From NCBI GenBank assembly GCA_951406725.2, contig OX597824.1:14818001-14882000 (forward strand): a stretch of DNA of 64,000 nucleotides. Reading direction: 5' to 3'. The position numbers were made by a program, and so were the translations under genes. Below are positions 26,004-58,446 of this stretch, piece after piece. Below the pieces are notes generated by a model. The model had not been told where the DNA came from, made no database searches, and saw only the letters and a program-made list of their open reading frames with translations. Source of the DNA: Octopus vulgaris (taxonomy: Eukaryota). Position 1 is the first letter of the stretch. Every line of letters begins with the position of its first letter.

Positions 26004-26177
26004 AAAATTAGAACACTTTAAAAAAGGAAGTTTTGTATCATACAACCAGAGCGATTTCAAGCTGGTTGGTATCAAAAGGGTTTAAAGGAAGCCGTTTTCT
26101 ATGCTATGCATGCACACAGACGTAAACACGCACATAAAACACTCAAAATTAAAAGATACTCATATTTTCAATATAAG

Positions 26178-26338
26178 GCACAGGAGTGGCTGAGTGGTAA
26201 GTAGCTTGCTTACAAACCACATGGTTCCGGGCTCAGTCCCACTGCGTGGCACCTTGGGCAAGTGTCTTCTACTATATCCTCGAGTCGACCAAAGCCTTGT
26301 GAGTGGATTTGGTATATAGAAACTGAAAGAAGCCTAAC

Positions 26339-26372
<34 letters not shown>

Positions 26373-26517
26373 TCTTTTGCTTGTTTCCTTTGTAAGCCTA
26401 GTACTTATTCTATTGGTCTCTTTTGCCGAACCGCTAAGTTACGAGGATGTAAACACACCAGCATCGGTTGCCAAGCGATATTGGGGGGACAAACACAGAC
26501 ACACAAACATATATGTA

Positions 26518-26557
<40 letters not shown>

Positions 26558-26718
26558 CATATATAAGAGAGGGTTTTTTTTCAGTTTCCGTCTACCAAAT
26601 CCACTCACAAGGTTTTGGTCAGCCCGAGGCTATAGTAGAAGTCACTTGCCCAAGGTGCTACACAGTGGGACTGAACCCGGAACCATGTGGTTCGTAAGCA
26701 AGCTACTTACCACATAGC
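26178..26718. mobile_element. Inverted pair of SINE family A copies (+ head 26178-26345; - copy 26389-26718)
   Basis: The head sequence appears in both orientations about 240 bp apart. Confidence 0.88.
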
Positions 26719-26762
26719 TACAAGTTTTTTGTCATTCTCTCTCTATTCATTTCCTTTTATTC

Positions 26763-26798
26763 CTTTCTGTCGAAGAGCTAAGGCTCGAAACGTCAAAG
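26763..26798 (+). ncRNA. Hammerhead-like motif with variant core CUGUCGA
   Basis: CUUU-CUGUCGA-A-GAGC(UAAG)GCUC-GAAA-CG-UC-AAAG. Confidence 0.55.
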
Positions 26799-28540
26799 AC
26801 TTTTCCATTTTTCCCGAGCATCAAACTAATACACCTGATTGTTTTTCATACACCTGTCTTCATCTTTTGTTTTTATATAAATTTCAACTATATATATATA
26901 TATATACATGGACACATACAACATATCAAATTCACCTAAACAGCATTGGTCAGCCCAGAGTCACTGTAGAAAACACTTGCCCAAAGTACCATGTACTGGG
27001 ATTGAACCCATGACCACATAGTTGCAAAGTGAGCTGCTCTCAACCACACAGCTTTAATTACAAAATCTTTATAAAATATAATCATTTACTTAATAGAAAC
27101 AAAACAAAACAAAACAAATATAAATGAAGCCCTTAAACAAATTCTCTATAATGAAGAGAAATGGCAAAAAGAAACAAATTATTTTATTATTAGAACCGTG
27201 GTTAATTCCATGAGAAGACTAACATATGCCTTTGAGTTTATATGGCTGCTGTTTAGTCAAATAAAACCCCACCACTGCTAGCCTTGCTATTCACCCACTA
27301 AAAGCAGGAAAAAGAATCACAGCAGTTGTCAATAATAGAAAAATAATGACTGTGGCAAGAAGAAAGAAAGCAGTCGAATCTGTAAGTTTTCATTTCCGTA
27401 ACTGACATTTCTGGTTTCCTTAATAGTTCTCATTACAAGCAGTAACAGATGGAGCCACACATTTCTAGGATAGCAGCTACAGTTAGCTAAGCTACTACAG
27501 TTCTTAGATCAGTAATAAATGGTGGAATTTTCTCAAGAGAATTCTTTTCACTCGTGTCAACTGAACAAGAGTCTTGTTATAAGACAAGACAACGCTCCAT
27601 AAATAATCATTTTGATGTCCATTTTTCTGTGTCTGTATGAACTGAATGGAGCTGAATGAAGCAGATTTTCTACAGCTGGATGCTCTTTCTGTTGCCAACA
27701 TTCGTTTTCAAGCCTCATAATATTTTCCAATGGCCAGACATAGCTCTATGATACAAACTTCCTGGTTAAAAGTGATCTAAATTAAAGCCCTCTATGAAAA
27801 TTACATATGTTGCAAACAACTGTTTAATAATCCTTTCTACTGAAGGCACAAGGCCTTGAAATTTTTTTTTTTGTGGGGAGGGGTAGTCGATTACACTAAC
27901 TCCAGTGTTTCACTGGTATCTAATTTATTGAACCCGAAAGGATGAAAGGTAAAGTCGACCTCGGCGGAATTTGAACTCAGAACATGGCGGCAGACGAAAT
28001 ACCGCTAAGCATTTCACCTGGCGTGCTAACGATTCTGCCAGCTTGCCACCTTACACCTGTTTAATAACGACAAAGTTATTTTAACAAATTCTTCATTATT
28101 ATATTTTTCAATTAATAAAACAAAAGCAACAGATTTTAACATAGACATGGTAATGAAAGGGTTTACTCTTTACTTATTTCAGCCATTTGACTGCGGCCAT
28201 GCTGGAGCACCGCCTTTTAGTCAAGCAAATCAACCCCAGGACTTATTCTTTGTAAGCCTAGTACTTATTCTATCAATCTCTTTTGCCGAACCGCTAAGTT
28301 ACAGGGACATAAACACACCAGCATCGGTTGTCAAGCAATGTTGGGTGGACAAGCACAGACACAAACACACACACACACATATATATATATACATACATAT
28401 ACATATATACAATAGGCTTCTTTCAGTTTCACACACACACACGCATATATAGTTGAAATTTACAGAAAAACAAAATATGAAGATAGGTGTATGAACAACA
28501 AACAGGTGTATTAGTTTGACACTCGGGAAAGTGAGAAAGT

Positions 28541-28576
28541 GTTTTACATTTCGAACCTAAGCTCTTCAACAGAAAG
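28541..28576 (-). ncRNA. Degenerate hammerhead-like motif, CUGUUGA family
   Basis: CUUU-CUGUUGA-A-GAGC(UUAG)GUUC-GAAA-UG-UA-AAAC. Confidence 0.45.
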
Positions 28577-28775
28577 GAATAAGAGAAAATAAACAGGGAG
28601 AGAATAAAAAAAACTTGTGGATTTAGCGATCAAGCATGGCTACTGTATGTATACATATGTATACACACACACACACACACAGATATATATATATATAAAT
28701 ATATATATATGTTGATTCGCTAGCCTCTGCACGCATTTTTTTTCTCTCCTTCTCTCCTTGTTTCTTTTCTGTGTA

Positions 28776-28813
28776 TCTTTCTGTTGAAGAGCGTAGGCTC
28801 GAAACGTTAAAGA
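28776..28813 (+). ncRNA. Hammerhead-like motif with variant core CUGUUGA
   Basis: UCUUU-CUGUUGA-A-GAGC(GUAG)GCUC-GAAA-CG-UU-AAAGA. Confidence 0.55.
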
Positions 28814-28942
28814 CTTGTTTTATTTATATTTCCTGAGCGCCATACTAATACAATTGTTTGTTTGTATTCCACCTGCCTTCATCTTTTGTTTATTTCCGTA
28901 AACCTGCCTTCGTCTTTTGTCTATTTTCATAAAGCTTCCTGT

Positions 28943-29000
<58 letters not shown>

Positions 29001-58368: not shown

Positions 58369-58446
58369 AATTAAGAGGAATGACCACTAAAGTGGACACC
58401 CTATATGCATATAAGGTGTCCACTTTAGTGGTCATTCCTCTTAATT
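58369..58446. repeat. Near-perfect 78-bp palindrome
   Basis: AATTAAGAGGAATGACCACTAAAGTGGACACC c TATATGCATATA a GGTGTCCACTTTAGTGGTCATTCCTCTTAATT. Confidence 0.95.

Follow-up and report, generated by a model that had tools for sequence, protein, structure and literature searches.

The window, by which we mean the whole 64-kb stretch of DNA analysed here, raises the question of what a hammerhead-type motif is and does when its core carries U at position 6, where CUGANGA has A. Three such motifs, reported in an earlier note on this DNA, were matched exactly by pattern search at 26767–26790 (+), 28549–28572 (−), and 28781–28804 (+), and 100 dinucleotide-shuffled sequences gave no match. A relaxed hammerhead-core scan of the whole window yielded no fourth copy. 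Motif positions were numbered by comparison with the consensus of minimal hammerheads (min-HHRs) of Penelope-like elements (PLEs; PMC4209133). The copies and their motifs are as follows.

26717–26889 (+): copy 1, a 5′-truncated 3′ end (pLTR and tail) of the U6 Penelope-like element; 5′ edge approximate
26763–26798 (+): motif 1, with stem I made of CUUU at 26763–26766 (5′ strand) and 26795–26798 (3′ strand); core C3 to A9 at 26767–26773, with U6 at 26770 and C7, then an extra A; stem II at 26775–26786 with loop UAAG; GAAA at 26787–26790; palindrome ACGU; predicted cut after C17 at 26794
28451–28645 (−): copy 2, a 5′-truncated 3′ end of the same U6 element, old subfamily E1; edges approximate
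28541–28576 (−): motif 2, with C3 at 28572, U6 at 28569, U7, and loop UUAG; predicted cut after A17 at 28545
28709–28944 (+): copy 3, a 5′-truncated 3′ end of the U6 element, young subfamily A2
28776–28813 (+): motif 3, with a 5-bp stem I, C3 at 28781, U6 at 28784, U7, and the family loop GUAG; predicted cut after U17 at 28808

The flank common to the three copies spans ~170–230 bp and ends in (TA)n. It had been described as a ~170-bp repeat; the three copies stand, but what repeats is actually the truncated end of a 4.4–4.5 kb element. In a tree of copies, the three are solo truncated ends from three different subfamilies, and no part of the element's open reading frame (ORF) was found in the 64-kb window. 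Copy 1 belongs to the oldest subfamily group (E3) and has (TA)n at its end. The motif of copy 2 has decayed, its fourth stem I pair being broken and C having become U at 11.3 and 15.2. Copy 3, which is 91% identical to the pLTR of the full-length element L097, lies back to back with copy 2, carries an internally duplicated tail segment, and also ends in (TA)n. The loops UAAG, UUAG, and GUAG agree with the earlier description. The base before the cut, said to vary only within H, is indeed C, A, and U in the three copies, but old copies L015, L017, and L022 have G17. The window also holds several dispersed repeat families of 110–240 bp with 4–9 copies each, SINE-like and often joined to microsatellites (e.g., 26176–26733, 27880–28052, and 28153–28409), and a near-perfect 76-base palindrome at 58370–58445, perhaps a small inverted-repeat element.

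The element to which the three motifs belong is Penelope-like, with a reverse transcriptase (RT) and, at the C terminus, an endonuclease of the GIY-YIG type (EN+). An RT-thumb fragment upstream of one copy gave 150 scored matches, many of them in long open frames. In all 20 long loci, which were chosen for their long frames, the U6 motif lies downstream of the ORF region; nine of them hold two motifs, 3.9–4.5 kb apart and all with U6, and U6 is present in both pLTRs of young full-length elements. The proposed linkage to Penelope RT/GIY-YIG ORFs was borne out by L097, whose 1065-codon open frame matches RVT_1 (E 1.3e-7) and, weakly and below Pfam's cut-off, GIY-YIG (E 0.006). This frame contains the motifs DKG, YIDD, CxxC-YIG, EH, and HF (CCHH-type), with a CX4CxxC linker at residues 820–828, between RT and EN; a CX2-5CxxC linker in this place has been described for Neptune and Nematis elements (PMC8557442). 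The pLTR of L097 is formed by an upstream partial copy that starts in the endonuclease region (a partial tandem), and the element ends in (TA)n, as for (TA)n insertion sites. Judged by these ORF and pLTR features, not by RT phylogeny, the element is probably of the Neptune/Nematis type.

The U6 lineage was active recently, since the youngest elements are 95–99% alike, pLTR pairs differ by 0–2 substitutions per 235 bases in 6 of 9 cases, and an endonuclease fragment in L013 shows no difference from L097. Twenty public sequencing runs under four organism labels contain most words of the young pLTR region, and two of the labels have contigs with exact matches to the U6 core; the labels may stand for a single species or for several close ones. 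No RNA run was listed among the public runs holding this region. Contigs of runs X1 and X4, which we guessed to be RNA, bridge the junction between pLTR and 5′ leader without differences (L097:2233-2779); the loose ends of X4 resemble a template-switch adapter, and X4 would thus presumably be a cDNA library. Alignment of four contig sets revealed neither a splice joint nor a pile-up of ends in L097:1930-2830, and contig ends cannot show RNA ends. One contig that crosses the predicted cut was left uncounted, since its shorter arm has only 30 letters and falls below the bridging rule. Contig variant lists are uninformative at position 6, known N7 variants being absent from them too. The U6 pattern had no match in metagenome contigs.

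Across the 2.8-Gb assembly, exact motifs (core, stem II, and GAAA box, with a 4-nt loop) with U6 numbered 24,460 vs. 562 with A6, and reversed-pattern controls gave no match. Position 7, previously thought to be limited to pyrimidines, is not so restricted: 12,970 exact U6 matches have C or T there and 11,490 have A or G. A relaxed pattern gave 29,101 matches, with U6 in 79 of 100 counted by hand among the matches listed. A sister form with a 3-nt loop gave 6,263 matches, with A6 in most of 100 among the matches listed; in exact matches, the ratio of the U6 lineage to A6 sisters is ~4:1. Because exact and relaxed patterns select on the motif itself, copies were also picked through the downstream tail alone (21,132 matches, the first 90 taken). 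Sixteen were set aside, 14 truncated before or inside the motif and 2 with deletions in it. In the remaining 74 motif-blind copies, U6 occurs in 71 and A6 in 3. The majority is thus U6 by both routes, where the earlier note had named a CUGANGA majority as the finding that would overturn its reading. N7 is T in 31, A in 21, C in 14, and G in 8 of these copies, and N17 is A in 58, T in 15, and C in 1; decay at the remaining motif positions is scattered and mostly of the CpG type. GUAG is the family loop, found in 61–73 of the 74 copies depending on loop position. C3, U4, G5, G8, and A9 of the CUGANGA core box are present and only A6 is lacking; in all other respects the motif fits the published PLE consensus (PMC4209133). 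Two old U6 copies, L161:3010-3049 (+) and L162:3049 (−), have a UUCG loop and a stem II U-U mismatch in common, which suggests a minor subfamily.

The age of the lineage allowed the motif to be compared with its flanks. A tree of 211 copies forms a ladder of subfamilies, from which ten were defined by hand (157 copies; copy divergence from 12% in the oldest to 0.7% in the youngest). Along the subfamily order, flanks underwent 80 substitutions in 120 well-filled columns, 51 of them variable, a count that low-complexity flank alignments may inflate, in groups that are hand-drawn and made up of copies mostly from one contig. Of the 36 motif positions, 34 remained without change; in the subfamily majorities, N7 has five changes, in which all four bases occur, and N17 has three, each between A and U. 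The GAAA box, A15.1-U16.1, and the GUAG loop are invariant in these majorities. Fisher tests gave p = 1.7e-7 for the 34 positions vs. the flanks and 0.006 for the ten core positions alone, and zero changes at 34 positions compared with 0.67 per flank column has a Poisson probability of ~1e-10; the constancy of U6 alone, a single site, is not significant. The same two positions vary among motif-blind rows sorted into five flank-defined groups (83 of 101 rows assigned). Because the flanks changed 80 times and 34 of 36 motif positions never did, and because N7 and N17 are the chemically free positions, the pattern speaks for purifying selection that has acted on a hammerhead-type structure since the rise of A6U. 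At N7, the five changes exceed the 0.67 expected per flank column (Poisson ~6e-4 for one site), possibly through tuning beside U6 or mosaicism between subfamilies.

The earlier note had taken loop variation in the three window copies as a sign of structural selection. Three copies cannot show this, because inserted copies decay neutrally, and with GUAG so prevalent in the family, the loop differences in the window are private decay in dead copies; the signal of selection is real but appears only between subfamilies. Covariation was found in part: U6 copies have C-G as the fourth stem I pair, where A6 sisters have G-C, A-U, or G-U, a two-sided change, and it is the only covarying pair; stem II is invariant and therefore uninformative. 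Over helix I and helix II (G10.1-C11.1), 96.9% of 192 cells are paired.

U6 likely derives from A6, since sister families and published min-HHRs keep A6. In the 3-nt-loop sister, picked by its upstream flank, A6 occurs in 26 of 28 motifs from 30 loci, and four of these loci have upstream endonuclease remnants 52–58% identical to the U6 element. A third family, which is very young, combines A6 with the known U3-A8 pair. This family (L202-L230, e.g., G000:C6:17952114-17956013) is Penelope-like, with an RT ~28% identical to that of the U6 element, and gave 131 scored matches, mostly 97–98% alike and many with 811-codon frames; its hammerhead is minimal, with a 2-bp stem II and a CCGG palindrome. 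An RT piece beside L144, considered as an A6 sister, proved to belong to another family. All motif-blind copies with A6 and a GUAG loop belong to the oldest flank class (3 of 9), in which A6 nevertheless occurs in only 3 of 100 among the matches listed (767 total). These few A6/GUAG copies in E3 may be ancestral or reversions; trees on 201 columns leave the root undecided, and the A6 outgroup together with the E group as one side is not rejected (p-AU 0.46). The first 4.2 Mb of contig C1 holds a cluster of copies with A6-U7 and a GUAG loop (G000:C1:426202-4115817).

In predicted folds of young copies, stems I and II form, pairing of U6 to A15.1 is possible, and the monomer takes on a collapsed, rod-like shape. 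ACGU (15.2–16.2 region) is self-complementary and conserved. The double hammerhead, at −13 to −16 kcal/mol, lay above both two monomers and the cofold minimum in 6/6 U6 copies, and was likewise not the minimum-energy fold in 3/3 A6 copies tried; as modelled, this is compatible with a requirement for assistance by the protein but is no sign of activity. Reading the core in another register, as U3-U4-G5-A6 from UUGAAGA, does not work for subfamilies with C7, A7, or G7 and gives no proper stem II, and a pseudoknot between loop II and downstream CUAU lacks conservation from one subfamily to another. In both the U6 and A6 families, a GAGCG located 20–30 nt downstream of the predicted cut is a conserved repeat of the stem II 5′ strand; it can pair with the stem II 3′ strand, and the resulting alternative hairpin would turn the hammerhead off.

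We read the motif as the minimal type I hammerhead in the terminal repeat of a Penelope-like retrotransposon, with U6 throughout a long-lived and recently active lineage. Its origin lies in a PLE min-hammerhead, whose way of working it likely shares, but it is best called a variant rather than a proven ribozyme, because A6 is lacking and cleavage is predicted only. As to function, a putative attenuated ribozyme assisted by dimerisation and protein is the account we favour, by a modest preference. It would cut weakly, after GUA or GUU, and only when two copies pair. A read-through transcript of tandem elements would carry two motifs 4.4–4.5 kb apart; the self-complementary ACGU of the two would form a shared stem III, and stems I would swap strands. 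The element's own RT-endonuclease may help the dimer fold, by analogy with reports on an Anolis element, and cleavage would release unit-length RNA. U6 would lower the rate, likely without abolishing cleavage, and we propose that slow cutting could be tolerated because uncut RNA serves as template.

Published data bear on this account in both directions. Engineered A6C cleaves at 0.33/min in 10 mM Mg2+; at 0.3 mM Mg2+ its rate is 3.6e-6/min vs. 0.30, and its activity is restored by Mn2+ (PMC7151607). A hammerhead with naturally occurring A6C cleaves, though slowly (PMC3088659). When a type III hammerhead was mutated pairwise, every single or double mutant of the CUGA region other than the C3-G8 swap had low activity (PMC9901934). 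PLE min-HHRs are expected to act as dimers and cleave poorly in vitro even with A6 (PMC4209133), and the hammerhead of the Anolis PLE cleaves only with the element's protein, while elements with mutant hammerhead cores still insert in vitro (PMC11167929). No A6U cleavage rate was found in the literature covered, the per-mutant data of PMC9901934 being outside its scope. Low mutant activity, weak A6 min-HHRs, insertion despite hammerhead mutations, the collapsed monomer, and the unfavoured dimer fold speak against an attenuated ribozyme and keep our preference for it close to an even balance. So do covariation at a single pair, the invariance of the GUAG loop, which hammerhead chemistry would leave free to vary, and the low-complexity alignments and hand-drawn groups behind the flank counts. 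A compensated active site, in which U6, the fixed GUAG loop, the fast N7, and the element's own protein together achieve physiologically useful cleavage by a core that ought to be almost dead according to mutagenesis, seems unlikely to us; if real, it would be a natural new solution of the core and the most abundant hammerhead form counted in the genome.

The main rival, possible though we have clear doubts, is that A6U silenced catalysis and that the motif was kept as a binding or dimerisation site for the RT-endonuclease near the start of reverse transcription. Mutagenesis predicts a strong loss of activity (PMC7151607; PMC9901934), cleavage is dispensable for insertion of the Anolis element in vitro (PMC11167929), and Naiad elements spread without canonical hammerheads (PMC8557442); the GUAG loop is conserved too, and the rod, with pairs U4-G16.2, G5-C15.2, and U6-A15.1, is predicted in most subfamilies. 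That rod, however, leaves ~14 positions unpaired, including C3, G8, A9, G12, A13, and U16.1, whereas change is confined to N7 and N17, the latter never leaving A/U. A protein reading the hammerhead shape could still yield the same pattern of constraint.

We regard as improbable a constraint on the DNA or on an overlapping signal (internal promoter, splice site, or endonuclease target) under which the hammerhead look is merely inherited. The motif does come after a long pyrimidine tract and contains AG dinucleotides, and Penelope pLTRs hold promoters, with an intron end at helix I in D. virilis (PMC4209133; PMC6765202). A U-rich 5′ flank, however, belongs to the general min-HHR consensus (PMC4209133), the free positions match hammerhead rules, and stem I covaries. 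The base after G5-U6 can be any of the four, which makes a splice donor there unlikely. That the motif is a dead relic in which drift is not yet visible is hardly credible: copies of the old flank class decay by ~4–12% per position, core included (hand count of 100 among the matches listed, of 767), but the zero subfamily-level changes at 34 positions (Poisson ~1e-10) stand against it.

Whether or not the attenuated-ribozyme account holds, standard searches miss the motif, as the earlier note had anticipated. No hammerhead family was among 123 Rfam matches (E ≤ 5), Rfam giving only microsatellite-driven miRNA matches below gathering scores, and published descriptors demand CUGANGA (PMC4209133). 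No natural A6U hammerhead was found in the literature covered, the Lunse, Weinberg & Breaker alignment and parts of the PMC4209133 supplement lying outside it, and A6U is absent from the parts examined of a 2026 animal-retrozyme preprint and of PMC6155905. In the consulted parts of PMC4209133, the only core change named for min-HHRs is U3-A8. The role of the hammerhead in PLEs is at issue, as its cleavage is weak in vitro and dispensable for insertion in one reconstituted system. The U6 lineage constitutes a natural experiment on this role: its core change is predicted to be crippling, yet it is abundant and recently active and has kept the other catalytic letters, and the A6 sisters and the U3-A8 family in the same genome offer matched controls. 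If the U6 motif cleaves, the natural hammerhead core is widened and CUGANGA descriptors miss whole families; if it does not, the fold is kept for another job.

The closest known counterparts are metazoan PLE min-HHRs (PMC4209133), with which the motif shares the U-rich 5′ flank, a 3–5 bp helix I, the NUH site, the extra base between 9 and 10.1, G10.1-C11.1, a palindromic 15.2–16.2 without loop 3, and occurrence in pLTRs, mostly as solo truncated copies and with opposite-strand pairs 100–700 bp apart. It differs in having U6, compared with A6 in 44 rows of the supplement alignment, by construction of the descriptor. The natural A6C of phage Bcep176 (PMC3088659; PMC7151607), with low but detectable cleavage, also has a pyrimidine at position 6, but that is C in a single phage sequence, whereas here U is fixed in ~24,000 copies, and the motif is of the dimer type and shows no evident tertiary contact. 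The Anolis Poseidon PAc hammerhead (PMC11167929) likewise lies in the pLTR of an RT/GIY-YIG element and is the model for protein-assisted cleavage; it has the canonical A6, its ORF starts inside the ribozyme rather than ~800 nt downstream as here, and the Poseidon clade is without the CX2-5CxxC linker present here. The small hammerhead variants of Lunse, Weinberg & Breaker (RNA Biol 14:1499; PMC5785218), going by their title and their citation in PMC6765202, similarly combine a short stem III, dimer cleavage, and association with PLEs. Finally, Neptune/Nematis EN+ PLEs (PMC8557442) have the same C-terminal GIY-YIG, CCHH, CX2-5CxxC linker, and DKG motif, the same partially tandem pLTRs, and the same (TA)n targets, and only the ribozyme core differs.
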